From: Escherichia coli
GTDB lineage: Bacteria; Pseudomonadota; Gammaproteobacteria; Enterobacterales; Enterobacteriaceae
Reading direction: 5' to 3' (one strand)
Assembly: GCF_036507355.1 (NCBI RefSeq)
Contig: NZ_AP027877.1
DNA: 64,000 nt
A program made the translations under genes and the position numbers. Shown here piece by piece: positions 3,070 through 18,187 of the stretch. A model generated the notes under the pieces. That model saw only the letters and a list, made by a program, of their open reading frames with translations. It made no database searches and had not been told where the DNA came from. Positions within the stretch are counted from its first letter, which is position 1, and each line of letters begins with the position of its first letter.

Positions 3070-6000
3070 CTATACCGTCCAGCTGTTCGACACCACTTCA
3101 GCCTGCTTCAGTATCAGTTCAACTGCATAAGGTGTTTTATCTGGCGGATACTTGTACTTACGCAGCGTCTGACGCACCAGAATACGTAACCGCGCACGCA
3201 CGCTTTCTCGCACCTGCCAGTCTACGGTTGTGGACTGGCGCAATTTTAACGTGACTTCGATAGCCAGTTTCTTAAGGACGTCATCACCCAGCTCCCGTAC
3301 CGCACTTTCGTTTTCTGCCAGCGCATCGTAGAACGCGATTTCGTCCGGGTTTAGCCCCAGCGCTTCATCACGCGCCATCGCTTCCTGAAACTCTTTTGCC
3401 ATCTGGATCAGTTCTTCAATCACCTGCGCAGTTTCAATGGCGCGGTTATTGTATTTGAGAAGCACGGCTTTCAGGCGATCTGAGTATTTCTTCTCCTGCA
3501 CCACGTTGTTTTTGGTGCGGGCATGAATGCCGTCGTTCAGCAGTTTCTCCAGCAACTCGACTGCCAGATTACGCTGCGGCAATTCGCGCACTTCTTCCAG
3601 AAACTCGTCTGACAACAATCCAATATTCGGCTTATCCAGACCCGCCAGCGCAAACACATCATCCACGCCCGTCGCAATAATGGCGTTATCGAGGATTTTA
3701 CCGAGTAGCGTATTTTTCTCTGACTGACTGAATTTTTTGTCGGTTGTCGTCAGCTTGATAATCGCCACTTTCACCGCCGACAAAAACGCGATCTCTTTTT
3801 GCAAGGGTTTAGCTTCATCTAACGTACTGCACAGCGACCAGGCTTTGTTCATCGCCAGCACGACATCGAAAAAGCGCTTCTTACCGTCATCAAGGCCCAG
3901 CACATAATCTGCGGCTTTGAGTAAAAACCGTTGGGGCACCTCTGCAAAACCGGTGTAATCAAACCCGGCGGCGGTTGGTGTTTTGGCAAACATTCCATGA
4001 ATCACATCCAGCTTTTCAAGCAGGATGGAGAACGCTTCATGAGCATCGACTGTCGTCTGTCCTTTACCTTTTGAATCGGTATAAGTTTTCAGCGCCTGTT
4101 TCAGTTCATTGGCGATACCGATGTAATCCACCACTAAACCGCCCGGTTTATCTTTGAAGACGCGGTTGACGCGCGCAATGGCCTGCATCAGATTATGCCC
4201 GCGCATCGGTTTGTCGATATACATGGTATGACAACATGGCGCATCAAACCCGGTAAGCCACATATCGCGCACAATCACCAGTTTCAACGGGTCGTTGAGA
4301 TCTTTAAAGCGCGCTTCAAGGCGTTTTTTGGTTTGCTTATTGTAGATGTGCGGCTGAAGGAATTTATTATCGGAGGCTGAGCCGGTCATGATGATTTTGA
4401 TTTCACCTTTCTCGACGTCATCACTGTGCCATTCCGGGCGTAGAGCCACCAGCGCATCATACAGCTTCACGCAGATCTCACGGCTCATGGCAACAATCAT
4501 TGCTTTGCCATTCATTGTGGCGTTACGTGCCTCAAAATGCTGAACCAGATCGGCGGCCACCTCATTGATACGAGGTTCAGAACCAACCAGTTTTTCCAGA
4601 CGGCTCCAGTCACTTTTGGTTTTCTCTTTCTGATCGGTCTCTTCATCTTCGACCAGCTCATCCACCTGATTAGACAGCGTTTCCAGCTCTTCGTGGTTGA
4701 GGTCGAGTTTTGCCAGGCGCGATTCATAGTAGATAGGCACGGTTGCGCCATCTTCCACCGCATCCTGTATATCGTAGATAGAGACGTAATCACCAAACAC
4801 CGCGCGGGTGTCTTTATCTTCGGAAGAAACCGGTGTTCCGGTAAAGCCCATAAACGACGCATTGGGTAACGCATCGCGCATATGTTTGGCGTAACCGTAT
4901 TTATAAGCGCCAGTCTCCCGGTTCAGCGTGGCGCTAAGACCATACTGGCTGCGGTGCGCTTCATCGGAAATGACGACGATATTGCTGCGCAGGTTTAGCG
5001 CCGGGTGAGTCTGTTCGCCATCAAGCGGGGCAAATTTTTGTACGGTGGTAAAAATAATCCCGCCTGATTCACGGACATTGAGCATCTCGCGGAGCTGGTC
5101 GCGATCGTTTGCCTGTAACGGTTCCTGCTTAAGCAAATCCTGTGCCTGGCAGAAGGTGGCATACAGTTGGCCGTCGAGATCGTTACGGTCGGTCACCACC
5201 ACGATGGTCGGGTTGTTCATTTCCGCTTGTTGTAGCAGTTTTCCGGCGTAACAACACATCGAGATACTCTTACCGGAACCCTGCGTATGCCACACCACAC
5301 CGGCTTTTTTACTGCCTGGCGTGATGTTGCTGCGCAGCGGCAAGTGTTTACCGGTAGAGGCCACAATCGTCGCCGTCACCGCTTCACGTACTGCGTGGAA
5401 TTGGTGGTAAGCGGCAATCTTTTTAATCAGTCGTTTGCCGTCGCTTTCAAACAGGATGAAGTAACGAATGTAGTCGAGCAGCAGTTCGCGGTTAAAGAAC
5501 CCTTTTACTACCGTTTCAAGCTGCCATTCAAACAGCGGTTTGTCGTCTTCATTAGACAGCGTTTTCCACGGCAAGAAGCGCTCTTCGTTCGCGGTGAGAG
5601 AGCCAATACGGGCGTTGTAGCCATCGCTGACCACCAGCGCTTCGTTGCAGATGAACAGATCGCTGAGTTCGTTTTTATAGGTCTGCAACTGATTAAATGC
5701 CGCCCAGATATCGGCATTAGCATCAATCGGGCTTTTCAGCTCAATCACTACTACTGGCAATCCGTTGATATAGCAGATAACGTCCGGGCGACGTACCTGC
5801 TTCGTTCCCTGGATGGCCACCTGATTCACCACCGTAAAGTGGTTATTATTTGGGTGGTTAAAATCCATCAGTAGCGCTTTGTCGTGGATAACTTTGTCAT
5901 CCTGCTTGTACTGCACCGGCACGCCGTCGAGCAGCAGGTGATGGAAGGCTTTGTTACTGACGACCAGATCCGGGCTTTGCGCATGGGCGATACGCAGTAT

Positions 6001-6204
6001 CACCTCATCCAGCACGGCAACCGGGAGATGTGGGTTAATCTTTTGCAACTGCTCCAGTAGCACCGGGCGCAAAAACACATCGTGGAACGACGCACGCAGC
6101 GGATTGTTGCCATCTGGCGCAATATCCGGCCCGTGCAATACTTCCCAGCCCAGTTCAGCAAACCATTGCAGGCTTTGCTGTTCTAAATCGTCTTCGCTCA
6201 GCAT
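3070..6204 (-). CDS. hsdR: Type I restriction enzyme R subunit (1044 aa)
   Basis: It has Walker A (WHTQGSGKS), a DEAH box ([13 protein letters not shown]) and a long helicase core. It is the last gene of the hsdM-hsdS-X-hsdR operon. Its ATG overlaps the upstream stop (cTGATGc). Confidence 0.95.
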
Positions 6205-7391
6205 CAGGTTTCCTCTGTCTCGGTTTCTTCCATTTCTTCGGGCACGTTTGAAATCTCTTTGAGCGCCATATTCAGTGGGGCAATAAAGGGATCTAACGCT
6301 TTTTCAAATGCCGTCAGGTTTACCAGTAGCCAGTCGATCATTTCAGGCCAGTTGGCTTCATCAAGGCTGATGGCCGGGCTGGCATAGGAAATTCGACACG
6401 ATTTTTTACCCGGCAGAGGTTCCCACTTAAGCGCATGGCCAAACGCGTTTTCAATTGCCTCTTTGCGTTCATGTAGCCAGTTAAAAGCAAAGGTATTGCT
6501 CTCTGCGGAAGCTTTGGCAATCCACAGCTCAACCCGAATCTCTTTTTTACTGAAAATCAGGTTATACGACACCGCGCTAATACCAGAGCCCGCACTGATC
6601 CAGTGATCGGTAGAGGGGCTGATATTGTTATATAAGTGGCAGGAGCTGGCTTTGAGGCGCTCCAGCATCTTTGTCCAGAAAGCTTTACGCATTAATTGGA
6701 CTGGCTTTACTCCGCCGCTGACGGATTGTTCTTCCGCCTCTTTTTGCGCCATACCGATCATGTAAGATTCTGCTTCCGGTGTGGGGATAACCTGACGGAT
6801 ATCAACGAATACATCGTCGTTGAACTTATAGGGTTTAACCTTAAAGCACTGTACCCGCAGACCAAATTGCATGAGCCACAGGGCAGTGTTGGTCACCTCT
6901 TTGCGAAAGTTGGCTGCGACCATGATGATTCGCTGTGTACGGCTCTGGTTGATTAAGGCTTCATCCAGCGTTTCATATTCGAGGAATTCAGCAAGCACCT
7001 CTGCCGCCGGGCGATTTTCCTCTGGGTCGTATTTATCCAGATAAAGCTGGAAGATCTGCAGAATTTGCTCTTTACGCAGGTTGGCGCAATACCCGGCATA
7101 TTTGAGCGCTTGCCAGACGACGTCGCGACCTGAATCATCGAGCTTATTCTCGATGATCACCAGATTGCCTTTTTTATCGATAGCCAGCAGGTCAAGGCGC
7201 TCTTTGGTGTCGTCAAAACCGGCGAACTCTTTCTGTATAATCAGTAGTTCATCGTCATTATCGCGAGTTAACGCTTGGGGATTCTGCGCCAGCCATTCCT
7301 GCAGATTGCCACGTTCGGTAAAACCAAGACTACTGAAAGAGACTTCCTGTAGGGAGTGTAAGCTGTTAGTCGGCGTATCAACTTTATACAT
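6204..7391 (-). CDS. 395-aa protein embedded in the type I R-M operon. It has an N-terminal PD-(D/E)xK (NucS/DUF91-like) motif and a C-terminal region reminiscent of DUF4268.
   Basis: The start at 7391 (MYKVDTP...) overlaps the hsdS stop (ATGTATAA). The motif [21 protein letters not shown] gives D...ExK. There is no P-loop. The stop overlaps the hsdR start. Confidence 0.7.
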
Positions 7392-8769
7392 TTTCCACCT
7401 CACTGACTGCCTGTTCTGCTTCCTGCAGGGTAATTTCACCCGAGAGAAGTTTGGGGAGAAGGGTGTCGCGGAGTTGGGTTAGTGATTCAGTTTGTACACT
7501 GAGCGATTTAATCTCATTAAATAAATGTGTACATTTGGCATGAAATAACTCCAATACTTTAGCATCAGGCTGAGCGATTTTAATTCCTGAGAAAGTAGAC
7601 GTATTGACATTTAAAGTTGCACTACCTGCGCTACCTAAAATGTGAAGATGATCTTTCAATCCCAACATACAAAAATAAAGATAATAGAGTAAGGAACTCT
7701 TATGAGGTGTAACAGAATTTATTTGCTGATTGGTATGAGATGGTTCATTGGTGATAGAAACAACACCAATAGTAGCTATACAACTAACACAGATAGAATT
7801 TGCGGGTACAAGTTTTTTTAGTTGCGACTTTGAACCGGCTTCGCTTAAATATTCATTAGTTTTAAGCACAAAAAGTTGCCCATGCATATCTGGTATCTTT
7901 ATGAATGGAACATCACTACCGTAATACTCTGGTTCTTTTTTTGACGGAGTTTTGCCACAAGTAACCTTCCCCATCTCACTAATTGACGCCACCCCCCATC
8001 CTTTAGGAATCGCCCCTAACTCACTGTCCTGCATCGCTGCCGGAAACAGTTCTGCCGTGGCTTTTAACTCGGCATATTGCTCAGGGTGTTCACGCTCAAA
8101 AACCGCCAGCGCATCCGCATCTTTCCCAGAAATGGCGGTCATGGCGGCAAGTGTTGCGTCTGCCTGCGAACCGCCCGCATCCAGTACTGCCATTTTGGCT
8201 TTTACGGGGTCAAAATCAACAAACCAACTTTTGAACAGGGCTTGTGCCATTTGTTCGAGGGTTTGGTTGATGCGATTATTACTATCAATTTTTTTACTTA
8301 ACGTAAAAATTAGCTTTGTACATCTTTTTTGATATTTTAAAGAAGGAATCTTTATTTTGTAGCTCAGCATGGCCCCTTTATCACCTCGAGGCATTTTTGC
8401 GCCCTTGGATGTAAGATGGCTATAATTAATAAAATCATCACTGCTTAAAATCAAATGTAAATATTCACTTGTGAGTTTTTCATGTGTAGTCCTAAATACT
8501 AGCACATCAGGAGAAACACCTCCGTAAAATGTGGCAAACCATACTTTTTTAAAGTACGTTCGAATATTAGAAAATAAAGTATCACCTATTTCAAAAGAAT
8601 TAAATTTGTTGACATCAGGGATGCCTGATGAAATAGTTACACCCTGACGGTCAGGCAACATATTTTCCGTGGAAATATAATTAGTAACATCTATAATAGA
8701 TGCATCACATTTTTTTGTGACTATCTCTACAAAGTTACCTAACTCAGTTTCGATGAACTCAAAACTCAT
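7384..8769 (-). CDS. hsdS: Type I R-M specificity subunit (461 aa)
   Basis: The start MSFEFIETELGNF at 8769 overlaps the hsdM end by 11 nt. Two variable target-recognition regions are separated by conserved helical spacers (LEQMAQALFKSWFVDFDPV ... LTQLRDTLLPKLLSGEI). Confidence 0.9.
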   Translation of the reverse strand: MSFEFIETELGNFVEIVTKKCDASIIDVTNYISTENMLPDRQGVTISSGIPDVNKFNSFEIGDTLFSNIRTYFKKVWFATFYGGVSPDVLVFRTTHEKLTSEYLHLILSSDDFINYSHLTSKGAKMPRGDKGAMLSYKIKIPSLKYQKRCTKLIFTLSKKIDSNNRINQTLEQMAQALFKSWFVDFDPVKAKMAVLDAGGSQADATLAAMTAISGKDADALAVFEREHPEQYAELKATAELFPAAMQDSELGAIPKGWGVASISEMGKVTCGKTPSKKEPEYYGSDVPFIKIPDMHGQLFVLKTNEYLSEAGSKSQLKKLVPANSICVSCIATIGVVSITNEPSHTNQQINSVTPHKSSLLYYLYFCMLGLKDHLHILGSAGSATLNVNTSTFSGIKIAQPDAKVLELFHAKCTHLFNEIKSLSVQTESLTQLRDTLLPKLLSGEITLQEAEQAVSEVENV

Positions 8770-10468
8770 AACCCAGCCCCCCCAGATTCGCCTTAATCTG
8801 CGCTTCCAACTTCGCGCTCTCTTCAAGCTGATCTTTAAGCTGCGCCGTCAGGCGCGCCATCTTCTCGGCAAACGGTTCATCATCTTCAGCTTGCTCGGCG
8901 GCACCAACGTAGCGCCCAGGGGTCAGCACAAAGTCGTTTTTCTGGATATCCTCCAGCGTTGCTGAGAAGCAGAATCCGGCTTCGTCTTCGTAGTCTTTAT
9001 CCGTCTGCCAGGCGTGGAAGGTATCGGCAATTCTGGCGATATCTTCGCGGGTAAAGTCGCGCAACACGCGATCTTTCATATAACCAATCTGGCGCGCGTC
9101 GATAAACAGCACTTCACCTTTACGGTGCGCTTTGCCGTTGCCACCGGATTTATCTTTGGTCAGGAACCAGATACAGGCTGGGATTTGGGTGTTGGTAAAC
9201 AGTTGCCCTGGCAGCGCCACCATACATTCCACCAGATCCGCTTCAATCAGGTTGCGGCGGATCTCGCCTTCATTGTTAGTGTTGGAACTCATCGAACCGT
9301 TCGCCAGCAGCAGCGCCATCGAACCTTTTGGCGCGAGGTGGTGGATCATGTGCTGCATCCACGCAAAGTTGGCGTTGCCCTGCGGCGGTGTGCCGTATTT
9401 CCAGCGCACGTCGTTTTCCAGCTTCGCGTTCCACCACTCCTTCATGTTGAACGGCGGGTTTGCCATCACGAAGTCAGCGCGCAGATCCGGGTGCTGGTCG
9501 TCTAGCAGGGTGTCGGCGTTTTTGGCACCAAAGTTAAAGTCGATACCGCGGATCGCCATGTTCATCGCCGCCAGCTTCCAGGTGGTCGGATTCGACTCCT
9601 GGCCGTAAACGGAAATATTGCGCTTCTGCTCAGCGGCGTTGTAATTCTTTTCGCCCGCGTGCTCTTCAATGAAACGGTCGCTGGAAACGAAGAACCCGCC
9701 GGAACCCATTGCCGGGTCATACACCCGCCCGTTGTACGGTTGCAGCATTTCGACAATCAGGGTCACGATGCTTTTTGGCGTGTAGTACTGACCTCCCTGT
9801 TTACCTTCCGCCAGCGCGAATTGCCCCAGGAAATATTCGTAAACGTGGCCGAGAATATCTTTGCTCTTTAAGCTGAGTTTCTCGCCGTTATATTCCGGGT
9901 TGCTGAAGTTTGCGTCAGAGAAGGTATTAATCAGCCCGGTCAGCACCTCGTTACTCAGTTGATACTGGCTGATGCGATTCAGAATACCTTTCAGTTTCGG
10001 GTTGGTTTTTTCGATTTCATCCAGCGCGTTATCCACCAGCCAGGAGACAGAGCGCAGCGTCACATCCTTGCCGGTGGTTTCATCCACCCACAGCACGGTG
10101 CCGGTCGGCAACATGGCTTTGTTTTTCAGCGTGTCCCAGCGCGCGGCTTTTGGCACCCAGAAGATGTTCTTTTCGGTGTAGTAATCTTCAACTTCCAGCT
10201 CTTCCTGGATAGCCTGAGCGTATTCTTCGTCGGAACCGTAATCATCGCGCGACATGGCGTAGATGTTGTCGGGATTACCGACATCGCGGAACAGGGTCGT
10301 CAGCTCCTGCTGACGCGCCTCGAAGGCATCAGAAACATACTTCAGGAAGATTAGCCCCAGCACCACATGCTTGTAGTTGGCGGCATCCATATTGGCGCGC
10401 AGTTTGTCGGCGGCCTTCCAGAATTTGTTATCCAGCTCGTTCAGAAATAGCTGTTCAGCGTTGTTCAT
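8759..10468 (-). CDS. hsdM: Type I R-M N6-adenine DNA methyltransferase subunit (569 aa)
   Basis: The start is MNNAEQLFLNELDNKFWKAADKLRANMDAANYKHVVLGLIFLKYVSDAF. The AdoMet motif is VYDPAMGSGGFF and the catalytic motif is VMANPPFN. Confidence 0.95.
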   Translation of the reverse strand: MNNAEQLFLNELDNKFWKAADKLRANMDAANYKHVVLGLIFLKYVSDAFEARQQELTTLFRDVGNPDNIYAMSRDDYGSDEEYAQAIQEELEVEDYYTEKNIFWVPKAARWDTLKNKAMLPTGTVLWVDETTGKDVTLRSVSWLVDNALDEIEKTNPKLKGILNRISQYQLSNEVLTGLINTFSDANFSNPEYNGEKLSLKSKDILGHVYEYFLGQFALAEGKQGGQYYTPKSIVTLIVEMLQPYNGRVYDPAMGSGGFFVSSDRFIEEHAGEKNYNAAEQKRNISVYGQESNPTTWKLAAMNMAIRGIDFNFGAKNADTLLDDQHPDLRADFVMANPPFNMKEWWNAKLENDVRWKYGTPPQGNANFAWMQHMIHHLAPKGSMALLLANGSMSSNTNNEGEIRRNLIEADLVECMVALPGQLFTNTQIPACIWFLTKDKSGGNGKAHRKGEVLFIDARQIGYMKDRVLRDFTREDIARIADTFHAWQTDKDYEDEAGFCFSATLEDIQKNDFVLTPGRYVGAAEQAEDDEPFAEKMARLTAQLKDQLEESAKLEAQIKANLGGLGYEF

Positions 10469-10830
10469 GTAAATCCTCGGGGTAGATCGCAGCGAAAGAG
10501 CAACCATGCCTTATCGCAAATTCAGTTTTGGAATGCAGTTCGCAAAATGATACCCGGTACACTTACGATTACAAATGCGCGGTATAAAGAAGTTTGCATT
10601 TGATCGGTGAATAATAGGAAACTCAGTCACTGTTTCGTCTGCAAAATCAGCCATTTCGCCTTCATACGTAGTTCTTCGGTTGAATAGTAAGGTCTATCAT
10701 GCTGCATCGAACGGTGATTTTGATGGATGTTGGAAGTGAGTAGCTGTACGTAATTTTTGATTAAAAGTAATCAAAATGTTGCCAATGGTTATGCTATCGT
10801 GTGTTTTTTGAATATATAACAGGTAAAACT

Positions 10831-11775: not shown

Positions 11776-12102
11776 ATGACTAAAAATACTCGTTTTTCCC
11801 CCGAAGTCCGTCAACGGGCAGTCCGTATGGTTCTGGAAAGTCAGAGCGAATATGACTCACAATGGGCGACAATTTGTTCCATTGCTCCAAAGATTGGCTG
11901 TACGCCGGAGACTCTGCGTGTCTGGGTTCGCCAGCATGAGCGGGATACCGGGGGCGGTGATGGAGGGCTCACCACCGCTGAACGTCAGCGTCTGAAAGAG
12001 CTGGAACGTGAAAATCGTGAACTGCGCCGCAGTAACGATATCCTTCGCCAGGCTTCCGCTTATTTTGCGAAGGCGGAGTTCGACCGCCTCTGGAAAAAAT
12101 GA
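11776..12102 (+). CDS. IS629 OrfA (108 aa)
   Basis: The translation matches IS629/IS1203 OrfA from memory. It has an HTH and a leucine zipper, and ends in the A-rich slippery region (ggaaaaaatga). Confidence 0.9.
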
Positions 12103-12989
12103 TGCCACTGCTGGATAAGCTGCGTGAGCAGTACGGGGTCGGACCGCTATGCAGCGAACTGCATATTGCCCCGTCAACGTATTACCACTGTCAGCAACAG
12201 CGACATCATCCGGATAAACGCAGTGCCCGTGCGCAGCGCGATGACTGGCTGAAGAAAGAGATACAGCGCGTATACGATGAAAATCACAAGGTATACGGTG
12301 TGCGTAAAGTCTGGCGTCAGTTGTTACGGGAAGGTATCAGAGTGGCCAGATGCACTGTGGCACGTCTCATGGCGGTTATGGGACTTGCCGGTGTTCTCCG
12401 GGGTAAAAAGGTCCGTACGACCATCAGCCGGAAAGCCGTTGCCGCAGGCGACCGCGTAAACCGTCAGTTCGTGGCAGAACGACCTGACCAGCTGTGGGTG
12501 GCTGATTTTACTTACGCCAGCACATGGCGGGGCTTCGTCTATGTGGCGTTCATCATTGATGTGTTTGCCGGATACATCGTGGGGTGGCGGGTCTCATCGT
12601 CCATGGAAACGACATTCGTGCTGGATGCACTGGAGCAGGCGTTATGGGCCCGTCGACCGTCCGGCACGGTCCATCACAGTGATAAAGGTTCTCAGTATGT
12701 ATCGCTGGCCTACACACAGCGGCTTAAGGAAGCCGGATTACTGGCATCAACAGGAAGTACAGGCGACTCGTATGACAACGCGATGGCGGAGAGCATCAAT
12801 GGTCTTTACAAAGCGGAGGTAATACACCGTAAGAGCTGGAAAAACCGTGCAGAAGTGGAACTGGCCACACTCACGTGGGTGGACTGGTATAACAATCGAC
12901 GATTGCTGGAAAGGCTGGGCCATACTCCTCCGGCAGAAGCAGAAAAAGCTTATTATGCTTCCATCGGAAACGATGATCTGGCAGCCTGA
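12099..12989 (+). CDS. IS629 OrfB (DDE transposase catalytic part, 296 aa)
   Basis: DDE/rve-type motifs are present: WVADFTY..., [17 protein letters not shown]. Confidence 0.9.
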
Positions 12990-13153
12990 GTTCACAGATA
13001 AAACACTCTCCAGGAAACCCGGGGCGGTTCACACTATTATTTCTCCGGTTAGCCTACAACAACGTTTTTATCAGAAGCTCAACCAGCAGATAATAGAAAT
13101 GAAAAACCCATTGCAGTGAAATTATTTTTGACAACATACAGCAGGAGTAAAAA

Positions 13154-13999
13154 ATGTTACGTGGTTCAGAAAGAAAAGAAGCATTAGCCAGTCTCAAAAG
13201 TGCAACTAACCGTTATGAAGTACAGGCTAAAGACACCCAGGATGAGATCACTGCCCTCTTTCTGTTACGCCAGAAATGCAGTAAGGACCTGATTGCCCGT
13301 GGTGAAAATTTTGTTAATCGACTGGCGAATACACCGAAAGAGTTTGATAAATCCTGGAGCGAATTGAAAGCGGAAATCGCTGAATTTGATAACGTGGTGG
13401 AAAAACTGGAAGAAGAATACCGCGCATCACATATTGGTAAAGGAACGGCTGCTGCGGGGGTTGCCGTTGGGGCGGGGGTCGCCGCATTTGCCCCTACGGC
13501 TGCGCTGGCGGTCGCAACAACTTTTGGTACAGCATCCACGGGTACCGCTATTGCTACGTTAAGCGGAGCTGCCGCAACAAATGCAGCCCTGGCATGGCTC
13601 GGCGGCGGCGCACTGGCTGCGGGTGGCGGTGGCATGTCAGCAGGAAGCGCACTACTGGCTCTGGCGGGTCCAATAGGCTGGGGGATTGGTGCTGTAGGCA
13701 TCGCTGGCGGAACCTTACTAGCCCGTCGCAAAAACGGTAAAATCATTGATGAAGCACAACAGGAAGAGCGCCAGGTTCGCGCAAAAACCAGCGAACTTCG
13801 CGTGATGGAACGTGGTGCGCAAGAACTCAAGATGCTCACATCCGAGCACTATCATGGTACTGAAAGCATTATTGATGTGCTGGAAAAGGCTGCGCCTCAA
13901 GACTATTGCCAGTTTAATACCCATCAGAAAGATCAATTAGGGGCATTGATTAACCATATCAATGCATTATCAAAACTGATCAACAAGAAAATCCAGTAA
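13154..13999 (+). CDS. 281-aa coiled-coil protein with a central Gly/Ala-rich hydrophobic (glycine-zipper-like) region. Function unknown.
   Basis: AGGAG lies 7 nt upstream of the ATG. The N- and C-terminal thirds are charged and helical. The centre, GKGTAAAGVAVGAGVAAFAPTAALAVATTFG...LAGPIGWGIGAVGIAGGTLLARRK (~95 aa), is hydrophobic. Its stop overlaps the next start (TAATG). Confidence 0.75.
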   Translation: MLRGSERKEALASLKSATNRYEVQAKDTQDEITALFLLRQKCSKDLIARGENFVNRLANTPKEFDKSWSELKAEIAEFDNVVEKLEEEYRASHIGKGTAAAGVAVGAGVAAFAPTAALAVATTFGTASTGTAIATLSGAAATNAALAWLGGGALAAGGGGMSAGSALLALAGPIGWGIGAVGIAGGTLLARRKNGKIIDEAQQEERQVRAKTSELRVMERGAQELKMLTSEHYHGTESIIDVLEKAAPQDYCQFNTHQKDQLGALINHINALSKLINKKIQ

Positions 14000-15444
14000 T
14001 GAGCATTAACCATAATACAGTTGGCGACCAGCTTATCGGCAGCGCGGTTAACGCCATTAATCAGACCCGCATTGATAATGAACTGTTAAAACTATCGCAG
14101 CAGGATCGTGCATTTGAGTTGGCTGGCGAACAAATGCAAAAGGTGCGTGATTTCATCGCGTCACCGGGTAACATCCTGGGCTCAATGAGCACCAAACACG
14201 GTGAAATTGCTGAGCAGGTAGAAGTTGGCGTGCGCAATGCTCGCCAGGCAATAGAAGAAAGGGTTCAGGATGCCTCTGATCTTAGCGCCACGTTTGACGG
14301 AGTGGGTCGAACCGCTCCGGCGGATTATATGATAGATGGCGTTGACGTGCAGTCAAAGTTTATCAACGGAGTTAATAATAACCTGAACCATGTCCTTCAG
14401 CACATGGAAACCTATCCCAATTTCACCCGGGGAGAATCCTTTTACCATATCCCCAAAGACTCCTGGCAAACGATTCAGGATGTTATTGATGGGAAGCCGG
14501 TGGAGGGCTTGAGCGAAAAAACAATACAGGCTATCAGGGATAAAGTTGCAGAAATTGAAAGTACAACGGGAAGATCCTTTAATGATGTCGTGCGTCCTGG
14601 AGTTTCTGATTACAAAGATGTTCAGTGGGGAAAAATTGACGAAACTCTTGATAAACATGATCAGGAATTAGCGGAACAGAACGAGGCAAAAAAAGCAGAA
14701 ATTATTGACGATCACCAACCCTCCCTAAGTGAAGGCATGCGTGCAACCGCAATGGGAGCCGCTTTCGGTGGAACCTTTGCTCTTGTAACAGGTATATATA
14801 GCAAATACCGTGACGGTAAAAATATATTTCGTGGAGATTTCAACAGACAGGACTGGCAGGATGTCGGCTTAGATACATTGAAAGGTGCCGCTATTGGCGG
14901 TGTATCCGCCGGAGCAATTTATACCCTGACCAATTATGCCTCTCTGGGAGCACCGTTCGCCAGCGCGCTGGTCACTGCCGCTAAAGGTGTAAGCAATCTT
15001 GCTCTCTCCTATCAGCGCGGTGAGATTAATGCTGATGAATTTACCGATCTTGGCCTTATCATCTGCGCGGAATCGGCCATCGTTGGCGCAATGTCTGTCG
15101 CAGGTCAGGCAATCATCCCTGTGCCTGTTTTGGGGGCATTGGTTGGTTCTATCTCAGGGAAGTTTATGGTTACCGTAGCTAAAAATCTGGACAGTAAAGC
15201 ACGCCAATTGCTGGCGAAAAAAATGGAGCAATTTACATGTCGCTTAAGTGAGATTGAGCAGAAAGCACTCAACCGAATTTTGAACGAGTTCGCGGCGCTG
15301 GGTGAGCTTACCGCAGCTGCATTTAGCGTGGAAAACAATCGCCGGTTGCTGGAAGCAAGCATCACGCTTGCCCAAGCCCACGGTGTTGAAGAGGCGAAGA
15401 TAATCAAAAATGCGGATGATCTTGACACATTTATGATGGCGTAG
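13999..15444 (+). CDS. 481-aa protein with an N-terminal soluble domain (HG-x2-AE ... AD-x3-DG-x-DVQSKF) followed by a Gly-rich multi-helix membrane region. Function unknown.
   Basis: It is translationally coupled to the upstream gene. Hydrophobic Gly/Ala-rich segments span residues ~245-400. The soluble domain is paralogous to residues ~405-460 of the next protein. Confidence 0.75.
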   Translation: MSINHNTVGDQLIGSAVNAINQTRIDNELLKLSQQDRAFELAGEQMQKVRDFIASPGNILGSMSTKHGEIAEQVEVGVRNARQAIEERVQDASDLSATFDGVGRTAPADYMIDGVDVQSKFINGVNNNLNHVLQHMETYPNFTRGESFYHIPKDSWQTIQDVIDGKPVEGLSEKTIQAIRDKVAEIESTTGRSFNDVVRPGVSDYKDVQWGKIDETLDKHDQELAEQNEAKKAEIIDDHQPSLSEGMRATAMGAAFGGTFALVTGIYSKYRDGKNIFRGDFNRQDWQDVGLDTLKGAAIGGVSAGAIYTLTNYASLGAPFASALVTAAKGVSNLALSYQRGEINADEFTDLGLIICAESAIVGAMSVAGQAIIPVPVLGALVGSISGKFMVTVAKNLDSKARQLLAKKMEQFTCRLSEIEQKALNRILNEFAALGELTAAAFSVENNRRLLEASITLAQAHGVEEAKIIKNADDLDTFMMA

Positions 15445-15480
15445 CACTCGAATAAAAATTACAGCAAGGATAAAACCACA

Positions 15481-18003
15481 ATGCTACAGATAATTGGTGC
15501 GTTAATTTTACTGGTAATCGGTTTTGTTATTATAAAAGCGTTGTTTAAGGCATCTCTCAATATTCTAGGTGTGATATTAGGATTGGGTGCATTGATTGTT
15601 GCAGGCCCACCTTTATTGGCGGGCTATATTGTAGAGCGCGTAACCTATGCGCTTCACTCACGTTGGCTGCTGGGTGTACCTCTTGCCATAGCAGGAATGG
15701 TGATTAGCTTTATGTGGGGACTTGATGGTAAACATATTGCCTACGAAGCCTATTCATTTGATTCAATGAAGTTTATTTTAACCGCTGCATTTGCCAGTGG
15801 CCTGCTTGCAGTACCTGTACAAACCAAGGCTATTCTACAAAACGGGCTTATACCAGCCGATATCAATGCCAAACTTAAAGAGTATTATTGCTGTTTTTAT
15901 ACGTCTTACTTTTTGATGGCCTGCTCTGCGGCTACACCGTTTATAGCCTGGCAATATAATATCTCATCTTCACTGATGTGGTGGACAGGATTGCTATACT
16001 GGATAGCAGCCTTACTGACACAGTTCTATGCGGCAAACCAAATTCAGGAACTCAAGAAGTTAACTAATGCCATCAATACAGGGTTAAATGAGCAAAAAGC
16101 GATCAATAACCAACTTTGGCTGACGGAACTAAAAGAAGGAAGTAACCTCTCAGCAGAATTCGTAGAGACTATCTATCTTAAGTTGGTCTCACAGCATATT
16201 TTTCAGGGCGATACTCGAGAGCAGGATCTGGCTGGTGAAAACTGGCTTTTAAATGATGCCTGGTATGAAAGAAAGATGGCTGAATTTAATGAGCAGTTAA
16301 ACAGTAAAATTGTACACTCATCAGATGAGCTAAGAAGCCTTTTTGGTAATAGGCTGAATTTACCCTCTGCTGCGAATGATGATCTCCTGAACCGTTATCT
16401 TGATGGTGGGAACTATTATTCTTTTTCGGATGGTCGAAAATTTGTCTCGTTTCACTATGTCGACGAGCTTTGTACCTGCACTTCATGCGGTTTGAGCGAG
16501 ATTAAAAACGCAAAACACCAGGACGGTTGTGGGAGCCAGGAATGGTATTGCTCTGATATTTGCCGGGAAACGGAAAAACTCTGCATTGAAATTCACAAGC
16601 GACCACAGGCTGAATTTATTTCCAGTGCAGCAACAAACGGTCTGATTCTCATGACGCTCCCGGAGGCCTGGAATACTAACGAAAAAATGTTTGCAGTGGG
16701 AGGACAAGGACATGGTTTTGCAGCCGAACGGGGAAATCATCTTACTGACAAAATCCAACTAAAAGATGCACATATTCTCGGTGATGATAATGCGAAAAAT
16801 GGTGCAGACAGGCTGGTTAACGGTTCAGAGATTCAGACCAAATACTGTGCAACCGCTGCACGTAGCGTCGGTGCTGGTTTTGACGGACAAAACGGTAATT
16901 ATCGCTATTATGACAGTAACGGAACCCCAATGCAGTTAGAGGTTCCGAAAGACCAGTATTCGAAAGCGCTTGAAACGATGGAGAACAAAATTCGCGATGG
17001 CAAAGTCCCCGGCGTTACCGATCCTGCAGAAGCCACAAAACTTGTACGTCAGGGACACCTGACTTATAGCCAGGCACAAAACATTACTAAGTTTGGCACG
17101 TTCGAATCTATCACTTACGACATTGCGGAAGGATCTATCATCAGCCTCGCAGCTGGAGGTATCAGCTTCGGTCTGACAGCTTCTATTTTCTACCTCAATA
17201 CCGGCGATCGTAAGGCTGCGTTGCAAACGGCAGCAATACAGGCAGGTAAAACATTTACCCGCACACTGACAGTTTATGTGACGGTACAGCAATTACACCG
17301 TATCAGTGCCGTTCAGGGGTTACTTAAAAATATTGATTTTGCCGCTGCCAGCCCGACAGTTCGTAATGCGCTTCAACAGGGAGTCGGAGCTAACAATCTC
17401 AACTCCCTTAACAAGATGATGCGTGGCACACTGGTTACCTCTTTCGCACTGGTCGCCGTGACCACTGGTCCGGATATGATCAAAATGGTGCGAGGTCGTA
17501 TTTCTGGGGCACAGTTTATAAAAAATCTGGCAGTTACTTCATCTGGTGTGGCTGGGGGGGCAATTGGTTCTATTGCTGGCGGAATGATGCTTAGTCCATT
17601 AGGTCCTTTCGGTGCTTTAGCAGGACGCGCAGCTGGTGGCTTGTTAGGCGGTATGATTGCCACAGCGATTTCCAAAAAAATAGCGGGTGCACTGGTTGAA
17701 GACGACCGAGTAAAAGTGCTGGCTCTCATCCAGGAACAGGTTACATGGCTTGCAACAAGTTTCATGCTTACAGCACACGAACTTGAAAACCTGAACGCGA
17801 ATCTGGCAACAGTAATTGACCAAAAAACCCTGGAGGTTATCTTCGCCGCAAAAGAGCAAGACCGAGCAACGGCCAATATGCTGATTAAACCACTTGTAGT
17901 AAGTGTGGTTAAGCAACGACCGGTCCTGAGCTATGAACAATCGCAAATCTGCGAAATGGTCGATCAGCTTGATACATCGGTTTCATTATCTGCTGTTGCA
18001 TAA
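15481..18003 (+). CDS. 840-aa polytopic membrane protein. It has ~6 N-terminal TM helices, a Cys-rich (MYND/zinc-ribbon-like) segment, an HGFAAE...ADRLVNGSEIQTKY domain and a C-terminal Gly-rich membrane region. Function unknown.
   Basis: AAGGA lies ~10 nt upstream of the ATG. TM-like stretches span residues 1-185. The Cys cluster is CTCTSCG-x14-C-x6-YCSDIC-x6-C at residues 331-368. Unverified recollection: the N-terminus resembles YeeR-type inner-membrane proteins of E. coli CP4-44-like islands. Confidence 0.75.
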   Translation: MLQIIGALILLVIGFVIIKALFKASLNILGVILGLGALIVAGPPLLAGYIVERVTYALHSRWLLGVPLAIAGMVISFMWGLDGKHIAYEAYSFDSMKFILTAAFASGLLAVPVQTKAILQNGLIPADINAKLKEYYCCFYTSYFLMACSAATPFIAWQYNISSSLMWWTGLLYWIAALLTQFYAANQIQELKKLTNAINTGLNEQKAINNQLWLTELKEGSNLSAEFVETIYLKLVSQHIFQGDTREQDLAGENWLLNDAWYERKMAEFNEQLNSKIVHSSDELRSLFGNRLNLPSAANDDLLNRYLDGGNYYSFSDGRKFVSFHYVDELCTCTSCGLSEIKNAKHQDGCGSQEWYCSDICRETEKLCIEIHKRPQAEFISSAATNGLILMTLPEAWNTNEKMFAVGGQGHGFAAERGNHLTDKIQLKDAHILGDDNAKNGADRLVNGSEIQTKYCATAARSVGAGFDGQNGNYRYYDSNGTPMQLEVPKDQYSKALETMENKIRDGKVPGVTDPAEATKLVRQGHLTYSQAQNITKFGTFESITYDIAEGSIISLAAGGISFGLTASIFYLNTGDRKAALQTAAIQAGKTFTRTLTVYVTVQQLHRISAVQGLLKNIDFAAASPTVRNALQQGVGANNLNSLNKMMRGTLVTSFALVAVTTGPDMIKMVRGRISGAQFIKNLAVTSSGVAGGAIGSIAGGMMLSPLGPFGALAGRAAGGLLGGMIATAISKKIAGALVEDDRVKVLALIQEQVTWLATSFMLTAHELENLNANLATVIDQKTLEVIFAAKEQDRATANMLIKPLVVSVVKQRPVLSYEQSQICEMVDQLDTSVSLSAVA

Positions 18004-18159: not shown

Positions 18160-18187
18160 TAACAAATAAGGGGGCATTTGCCCCCTT
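18160..18187 (-). terminator. Rho-independent terminator downstream of arsC. It may also terminate the convergent 840-aa gene.
   Basis: AAGGGGGC-attt-GCCCCCTT forms an 8-bp GC-rich stem. On the minus strand it is followed by TATTTGTT. Confidence 0.7.

Follow-up and report, generated by a model that had tools for sequence, protein, structure and literature searches.

Shared ancestry of a PDC-M09B protein and its YeeR-family neighbour in an Escherichia coli defence island

Here we have analysed a three-gene cassette in a 64,000-nucleotide stretch of Escherichia coli DNA (assembly GCF_036507355.1, contig NZ_AP027877.1), referred to as a whole as the window. Its three co-oriented open reading frames (ORFs) on the + strand encode P281, P481 and P840, all of which RefSeq annotates as hypothetical proteins; the P281 stop and P481 start overlap by 1 nt, P481 and P840 lie 36 nt apart, and no terminator-like site separates any of the three ORFs. 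A reading of this DNA from its letters alone (the sequence-only reading) had noticed that P481 resembles the C-terminal ~440 residues of P840. By comparing broad family profiles and independently predicted structures, we show that these two regions are ancient paralogues with one collinear ~330-residue module, composed of an ~150-residue alpha/beta domain, a glycine-zipper-like hydrophobic helix bundle and a helical tail. The cassette comprises the following features, for which structural statements refer to AlphaFold2 models and their predicted local distance difference test (pLDDT) scores:

13154..13999, + strand: P281, PDC-M09A (PADLOC PDLC04407), helical with a central Gly/Ala-rich hydrophobic hairpin region
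13999..15444, + strand: P481, PDC-M09B, 481 aa (PADLOC PDLC04409)
14167..14661, + strand: P481 residues 57-221, shared alpha/beta domain (pLDDT ~90, hhalign, invariant columns)
14725..15180, + strand: P481 residues 243-394, five predicted Gly/Ala-rich hydrophobic helices (glycine-zipper region)
15193..15441, + strand: P481 residues 399-481, helical C-terminal tail (predicted secondary structure)
15481..18003, + strand: P840, full-length YeeR-family protein, 840 aa (homologue names, PF27347, identity to K-12 YeeR)
15481..16092, + strand: P840 residues 1-204, five long hydrophobic helices, N-terminal membrane domain (pLDDT 73-93)
16093..16584, + strand: P840 residues 205-368, two winged-helix-like units followed by a Cys cluster (model, Foldseek, invariant Cys columns)
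16681..17115, + strand: P840 residues 401-545, shared alpha/beta domain (hhalign, merged alignment, matching DSSP assignments, invariant columns)
17122..17670, + strand: P840 residues 548-730, Gly-rich hydrophobic helices (hhalign; predicted helices of low to moderate pLDDT)
17704..18000, + strand: P840 residues 742-840, helical C-terminal tail (predicted secondary structure)

A collinear module common to P481 and P840

The motifs that first drew attention to the two proteins lie exactly where they had been placed on the translation: KHGEIAE at 14194-14214 and ADYMIDGVDVQSKF at 14320-14361 in P481, GHGFAAE at 16708-16728 and ADRLVNGSEIQTKY at 16804-16845 in P840. The sequence-only reading had proposed a pairwise or profile alignment as a check on its claim, and here the two methods parted. 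Pairwise BLASTP of P481 against P840 gave a best E of 0.85 in the wrong register, and in Pfam-A, NCBIfam and PHROGs neither protein matched a family above threshold. Narrow profiles built from close homologues alone (effective number of sequences, Neff, ~2.5) gave two short collinear hhalign matches at 52% and 24% probability, each scoring above 150 of 150 column shuffles, though the comparison was weak overall (15-52%). We then used far deeper alignments: a domain-profile search of 1.84 billion cluster representatives widened the P481 family to 381 clusters at E <= 1e-3, and broad profiles were assembled from 222 PDC-M09B-family and 104 YeeR-family sequences, with 50%-cluster representatives added.

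With these broad profiles, P481 108-389 aligns end to end with P840 442-721 at 98.3% probability (E 2.5e-14), against a score of 33.1 for the reversed control, so that the similarity is continuous and extends well beyond the two short motifs. The two main parts of the module also align separately. The soluble domain (P481 57-221 with P840 401-545) reaches 96.8% probability, P 2.7e-10 and a score of 68, where the best column shuffle scored 19.6 and the reversed sequence 15.8; the Gly-rich region (P481 334-389 with P840 665-721) reaches 92.9% probability and a score of 53.6, where the best shuffle scored 20.2 and the reversed sequence 29.3. The C-terminal tail of P481, taken alone, has no significant hhalign alignment to that of P840. 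Furthermore, MAFFT by itself aligned every motif in a set of 28 sequences (14 maximally diverse members per family), and a hidden Markov model of the YeeR family matches one Pseudomonas PDC-M09B protein at E 1e-5. Identity between P481 and P840 in the shared domain is 16-18%.

Predicted structures agree with the profiles. AlphaFold2 models built independently from each family alignment have a mean pLDDT of 71.5 for P481, whose N-terminal domain reaches ~90, and of 76.4 for P840. Along the hhalign alignment the DSSP states of the two coincide at 80% of the 137 positions, as opposed to 30-44% in shifted registers, and every strand is matched. Both models have the predicted core order alpha-beta-beta-beta-alpha-beta (with a further alpha in P481). 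Read along the sequence, the common order is a helix with H-G-x-x-A-E at its start, a strand, D, a strand, a strand carrying Q-x-K, a helix, a strand and P-K-D; after P-K-D, helices, a strand and then the hydrophobic helices follow in both. The matched elements (H, helix; E, strand) and aligned residues (P481/P840) are:

P481 secondary structure: H66-86, E97-98, E110-112, E115-119, H125-138, E148-151
P840 secondary structure: H410-425, E430-432, E444-446, E449-453, H459-464, E485-488
Aligned pairs in the alpha/beta domain: H67/H411, G68/G412, A71/A415, E72/E416, D109/D443, Q118/Q452, K120/K454
Further pairs in the domain: P152/P489, K153/K490, D154/D491, Y205/Y529
Aligned pairs in the membrane part: G341/G672, F348/F679, G369/G700, G379/G711, G383/G715, G387/G719

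In the 28-member alignment G, E, D, Q, K and P are invariant across both families, and H, A, Q and Y nearly so. The HG, AE, D and QxK residues of the motif read from the letters thereby hold up, but its acidic [DE] position, two residues before the Q, is variable in both families. A similar adjustment applies to the membrane part: a Gly/Ala-rich hydrophobic region and a helical tail do follow the domain in both proteins, but not at the common distance of ~130-140 residues that had been claimed, since the first hydrophobic helix starts ~127 residues after QxK in P481 and ~93 in P840. The distance is shorter in P840 because this protein lacks a helical insert (~P481 171-192 in the merged alignment). 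The best conserved block, RG.I...F with the Gly-zipper, is evenly placed, at 220 (P481) and 217 (P840) residues after the motif, and within it RGRISGAQF and GG..GS.AGG of P840 (671-721) align with P481 340-389.

Could such a resemblance arise by chance from a common Gly/Ala-rich composition? The empty BLASTP comparison would be in keeping with this, as would the score of 29 that the Gly-rich region still attains when reversed. However, the soluble domain, which is not Gly-rich, stands far above its own shuffled and reversed controls; eleven invariant or near-invariant residues align across 140 positions; and the secondary-structure elements follow in identical order in both proteins. Chance is already effectively refuted by the hhalign alignments, their controls and the DSSP match, and we give it scarcely any weight. 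Because profile-profile alignment and predicted secondary structure agree, we accept homology.

The link between PDC-M09B and YeeR_C (PF27347) appears to be previously unrecorded, since the precomputed domain annotations place PF27347 on none of the 120 P481 homologues listed. P481 itself does not reach the PF27347 threshold in precomputed annotation; its relation to that family becomes visible just by profile-profile comparison. Two catalogued yet functionally blank families, PDC-M09 as a pair of candidate defence genes and YeeR as a y-gene product of the K-12 prophage CP4-44, are thereby joined through a common module, for which residues to mutate can be named: E72, D109, Q118, K120 and D154 in P481, and E416, D443, Q452, K454 and D491 in P840. 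The result is a useful yet incremental remote-homology annotation of two uncharacterised families.

Two families and the origin of their arrangement

P281 and P481 make up a PDC-M09 pair. P281 matches the PADLOC PDC-M09A model PDLC04407 (E 2.4e-120, positions 1-280 of 282), P481 matches the PDC-M09B model PDLC04409 (E 2.9e-214, positions 2-480 of 480), and the genes are adjacent and co-oriented, so that both genes and their arrangement are those of PDC-M09. Our searches found 780 homologues of P481, with a Pfam domain recorded for one alone. The P481 family led to 80 genomic loci, spread over Proteobacteria, Cyanobacteria, a Fusobacterium plasmid, Firmicutes and other sources. In 75 of them the gene directly upstream of B encodes a P281 homologue; four of the remaining five fall at a contig end, giving 75 of 76 informative loci. 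Natural A-B fusion proteins also exist (P0339, 876 aa; P0367, 758 aa). Because of this adjacency, the stop/start overlap in the window and the fusions, genomic sequence lends real support to P281, rather than P840, as the partner of P481, and we name it as the obligate one.

P840, on the other hand, is by its sequence scores not a PDC-M09B member, since against the PADLOC M09B models it reaches only E 6e-5 and 6e-4 (residues 441-733 with model positions 103-395, in register). Its homologues are named 'Inner membrane protein YeeR' and nearly all carry a precomputed PF27347 YeeR_C domain; P840 was assigned to PF27347 through the precomputed domain on its 99%-identical cluster representative, P0121. 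YeeR of E. coli K-12 (b2001, in the CP4-44 cryptic prophage) is 63% identical to P840 residues 1-509 and shares with it the N-terminal membrane domain, winged-helix units, Cys cluster, HGFAAE, ADRLV..IQTKY and EVPxDQY. Unlike P840, it ends at residue 510, without the glycine-zipper region and tail common to P840 and P481: the K-12 gene (L086:8780-10312) ends inside the shared alpha/beta domain region, where yeeS overlaps its end. Because the K-12 protein stops there, the final 330 residues of P840 have no counterpart in it, and from these comparisons it looks like a C-terminally truncated form of the ~830-850 aa proteins of most species. Perhaps this truncation explains why the K-12 gene gave no phenotype.

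The N-terminal half of P840 has features of its own. The membrane domain (residues 1-204), with a weak Pfam match to SLATT_1 (E 0.029), has no counterpart in P481. Residues 205-368 match ESCRT-II winged-helix pairs in Foldseek (probability 0.96-0.98, yet E 0.1-0.2), and the invariant cysteines C333, C336, C357, C361 and C368, in the pattern C-x2-C ... W-Y-C-S-x2-C-x6-C, look like a zinc ribbon or MYND-like finger. The models suggest that residues 205-368, placed after the membrane domain and before the shared module, may form a unit that binds nucleic acid or protein. We also considered whether the N-terminal half of P840 is a diverged PDC-M09A, which would make P840 an A-B fusion, and rejected the idea (hhalign 1.5% probability against residues 1-390). 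The P281 profile finds only a composition-level 11% hhalign match in the Gly-rich region of P840, and the true A-B fusions look unlike it.

How, then, did two such distant relatives come to share a cassette? The sequence-only reading saw a gene duplication inside the operon and a hetero-oligomeric assembly; spelled out, P840 would carry a tandem duplicate of P481 in its C-terminal half, and the paralogues would form an obligatory hetero-oligomer. Indeed, the homology is real, the genes are close neighbours on one strand with nothing terminator-like between them, and several enterobacterial genera have the three genes in this order, with P481 identities of 81-99%. We nonetheless regard this history as very unlikely, and duplication within the operon as unsupported, because identity in the shared domain is so low, because each protein belongs to a broadly distributed family of its own, and because a YeeR gene stands beside PDC-M09B in few loci. 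A YeeR-like gene lies downstream of PDC-M09B in 5 of the 80 loci and in a separately fetched E. coli locus, all from Enterobacteriaceae and two of them fragments; at least 70 PDC-M09 loci have no YeeR gene, and even some enterobacterial ones (L005-L009) have it fragmented or absent. YeeR genes without a PDC-M09 neighbour occur in turn in Pseudomonas nunensis, near a RES-Xre toxin-antitoxin pair, and in Aliarcobacter butzleri, adjoining a type I restriction-modification (R-M) system in an integrative element. A 283-aa gene upstream of the Aliarcobacter YeeR gene was considered as a P281 homologue and rejected (E 0.44).

These distributions strongly suggest that the P840 domain groups with other YeeR proteins, far from its neighbour P481, and we infer that two family members, by then already divergent, came to lie side by side in a single lineage of CP4-44-like islands. 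Such islands with the cassette carry Ag43, a YeeP-like GTPase and DUF932, and the cassette is present in only 6 of 5,426 complete E. coli genomes. Compared with PDC-M09 elsewhere, the window thus has a third gene, the remote paralogue of B, as do a few Enterobacteriaceae. Across the 80 loci no other neighbour is kept beyond close relatives, save a WYL-family regulator upstream in enterobacterial loci.

Architecture also varies within the PDC-M09B family. The variants P0359 and P0377 have a lipoprotein signal in front, with or without PASTA repeats; P0322 (1410 aa) has a long low-complexity repeat inserted within the alpha/beta domain; and in P0366 the PDC-M09B domain is fused to a beta-helix-like repeat region, the membrane part being absent.

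A possible E/D/QxK site in the shared domain

The sequence-only reading had further raised, as a speculation, a degenerate PD-(D/E)xK-like site. The predicted topology of the shared domain and the placement of E, D and QxK do fit, but in fold and profile searches the domain has no significant match to a known nuclease. The alpha-beta-beta-beta-alpha-beta core of the PD-(D/E)xK fold is predicted in both models, with an invariant Glu in helix 1 (E72/E416), an Asp at the start of strand 2 (D109/D443) and Q-x-K on strand 3, where the Lys (K120/K454) is invariant and the usual (D/E) position is occupied by an equally invariant Gln (Q118/Q452). Q-x-K variants occur in active members of the PD-(D/E)xK group, namely Tn7 TnsA and Mrr. 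From the models, a PD-(D/E)xK-type site of the E/D/QxK kind is plausible, though unproven.

Several observations weigh against such a pocket and against the functional proposal built on it below. Gln stands throughout where (D/E)xK has its canonical acidic residue; neither model had a PDB match at E <= 0.001 in Foldseek; and no PDB sequence matched below E 0.01 when searched with either family profile, the P481 domain profile or the merged-domain profile. Pfam, NCBIfam and per-member Pfam scans were likewise empty for the shared domain, and the Mrr catalytic-domain (Mrr_cat) profile, which is shallow (Neff 2), showed no relation to it (score 12). In P0377 the lipoprotein signal and PASTA repeats directly precede the domain, which would therefore lie outside the cytoplasm, an awkward location for intracellular nucleic-acid sensing. 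On the side of function, the literature yielded no paper mentioning PDC-M09, none linking YeeR to phage defence and no experiment on either, and the PDC systems are described as unpublished candidates.

If the site were real, the shared domain might itself be the effector, an active membrane-tethered PD-(D/E)xK-type nuclease whose hydrophobic helices serve just for anchoring or oligomerisation. The predicted topology and the canonical placement of the invariant E, D, Q and K are what such an enzyme would have, and the sole nuclease among the Foldseek matches, ThaI, appears there at E 2.3. The absence of any significant structural or profile match to a nuclease argues otherwise, as do the H-G and P-K-D invariants, which are not standard nuclease motifs, the extracytoplasmic domain predicted for the P0377 variant, and a Gly-zipper region constrained as strongly as the domain itself. 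An effector nuclease therefore strikes us as improbable.

Membrane helices, defence context and proposed function

All three proteins have predicted Gly/Ala-rich hydrophobic helices, which give weak matches to Romo1, glycine-zipper, SLATT, LeoBC, XaxA and phage tape-measure segments. Within P840, residues 548-730 match Gly-zipper_Omp in Pfam at E 0.029. Comparison with the glycine-zipper proteins Tim17, Tim22, OEP16 and Romo1-Mgr2 has clear limits: pLDDT is 40-69 in this region, generic helical bundles typically give such scores, the match in Pfam falls below the gathering threshold, and no evolutionary link is drawn. P281 has sub-threshold matches to XaxA, LeoBC and tape-measure families; against the XaxA family model NF033928 it scores 21.6 bits where the cut-off is 125, so that membership of the ClyA/XaxA group is not indicated.

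Two further similarities to phage tail tape-measure proteins were seen: the Gly/Ala-rich segment of P281 resembles PHROG 1533 (E 7e-6), and P840 residues 685-730 (17533-17670) resemble PDB 9ki1_g (E 0.013). Both could be compositional, or could reflect a shared membrane-inserting glycine-zipper element.

The cassette lies in a defence island: in the window it is flanked by a type I R-M system, by ZorA1, which IS3 has cut short, and by Dsr1, whose gene is split into three ORFs. Intact islands have a regulator gene upstream (L001:8213-9088) encoding helix-turn-helix, WYL and WCX Pfam domains, and a WYL gene precedes the cassette in 7 enterobacterial loci. Regulators of the CapW/BrxR type, with winged helix-turn-helix, WYL and WCX domains, control defence systems, namely cyclic oligonucleotide-based antiphage signalling systems (CBASS) and bacteriophage exclusion (BREX) systems (PMC9122588, PMC11662680). 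The window departs from the intact islands in that IS3 (ORFs 11776-12989) has deleted and replaced all but the end of this gene, and because only the last 28 codons of the regulator are left, the cassette here may be deregulated or silent. Two features mark the borders of the cassette:

13033..13119, + strand: WYL regulator remnant, last 28 codons and stop (100% identity to residues 265-292 of L001:8213-9088)
18168..18187, no strand assigned: bidirectional terminator-like hairpin of 8 pairs (6 G-C), closing both the P281-P481-P840 unit and the convergent arsC

Taken together, the best overall explanation, with a probability of about 0.6, is a module of ancient paralogues borne by a PDC-M09 pair and by a separate YeeR protein that have been juxtaposed, the proteins being proposed as membrane effectors. 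The last element is the most tentative. We favour a membrane effector because of the defence island, the WYL regulator and the Gly/Ala-rich helices with their weak membrane-family matches; it is possible, at well under even odds, that P481 and P840 are membrane-acting abortive-infection effectors in which an alpha/beta pocket gates glycine-zipper helices. In such a mechanism the cytoplasmic alpha/beta domain would bind, and perhaps cut, a nucleic-acid or nucleotide cue in its PD-(D/E)xK-shaped E/D/QxK pocket, and would thereby gate the insertion or opening of the glycine-zipper helices, so that the inner membrane would be depolarised; P281 would serve P481 as co-pore partner, while P840 would act alone via its built-in membrane domain. 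RexB, SLATT-type two-transmembrane-helix proteins and transmembrane CBASS effectors similarly combine hydrophobic helices with a cytoplasmic domain, a defence-island location and regulator-controlled expression, and weak SLATT_1 (E 0.029) and RexB (E 0.15) matches are found in P840 and the ZorA fragment. Unlike those systems, the cassette has no cyclase or SMODS signalling enzyme nearby, the matches are sub-threshold, and function is inferred only. A bolder version, in which the YeeR_C-type domain is an unrecognised, highly diverged PD-(D/E)xK branch that senses nucleic acid or a nucleotide as the gate of a Tim17/OEP16-like glycine-zipper channel, PDC-M09 and YeeR are one class of ligand-gated suicide pore, and P281, P481 and P840 build a mixed pore, is a long shot.

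Alternatively, the module may be no immune effector but serve a membrane or envelope function of the mobile element, perhaps as an XaxAB-like binary alpha-helical pore-forming toxin, a channel, or a factor for exclusion or at the cell surface, in which case its location among defence genes would be incidental to the CP4-44-like island that carries it. The weak XaxA match of P281, the variants with lipoprotein signal and PASTA repeats, the position of K-12 yeeR in a flu-yeeR-yeeS island beside adhesin and toxin-antitoxin genes, and the lack of experimental defence data in the literature would all accord with this. Yet P281, P481 and P840 have no signal peptides by sequence; the cassette is surrounded by R-M, Zorya and Dsr1 genes and preceded by a WYL-type regulator; YeeR elsewhere adjoins type I R-M and toxin-antitoxin genes; and the PADLOC curators chose the A-B pair as a defence candidate. 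We therefore think a non-immune role unlikely and retain the membrane-effector proposal at the strength given above. Should the cassette be a defence system, its module would link a sensor to membrane permeabilisation in one more way; otherwise, the connection between PDC-M09B and YeeR still holds as annotation.

The neighbouring type I R-M locus (3070-10507) lies on the minus strand, with a presumed hsdR at 3070-6204 (1044 aa) and a presumed hsdS at 7384-8826. Between the two, a family-library scan identified a DUF4268 gene of 411 aa at 6204-7439.

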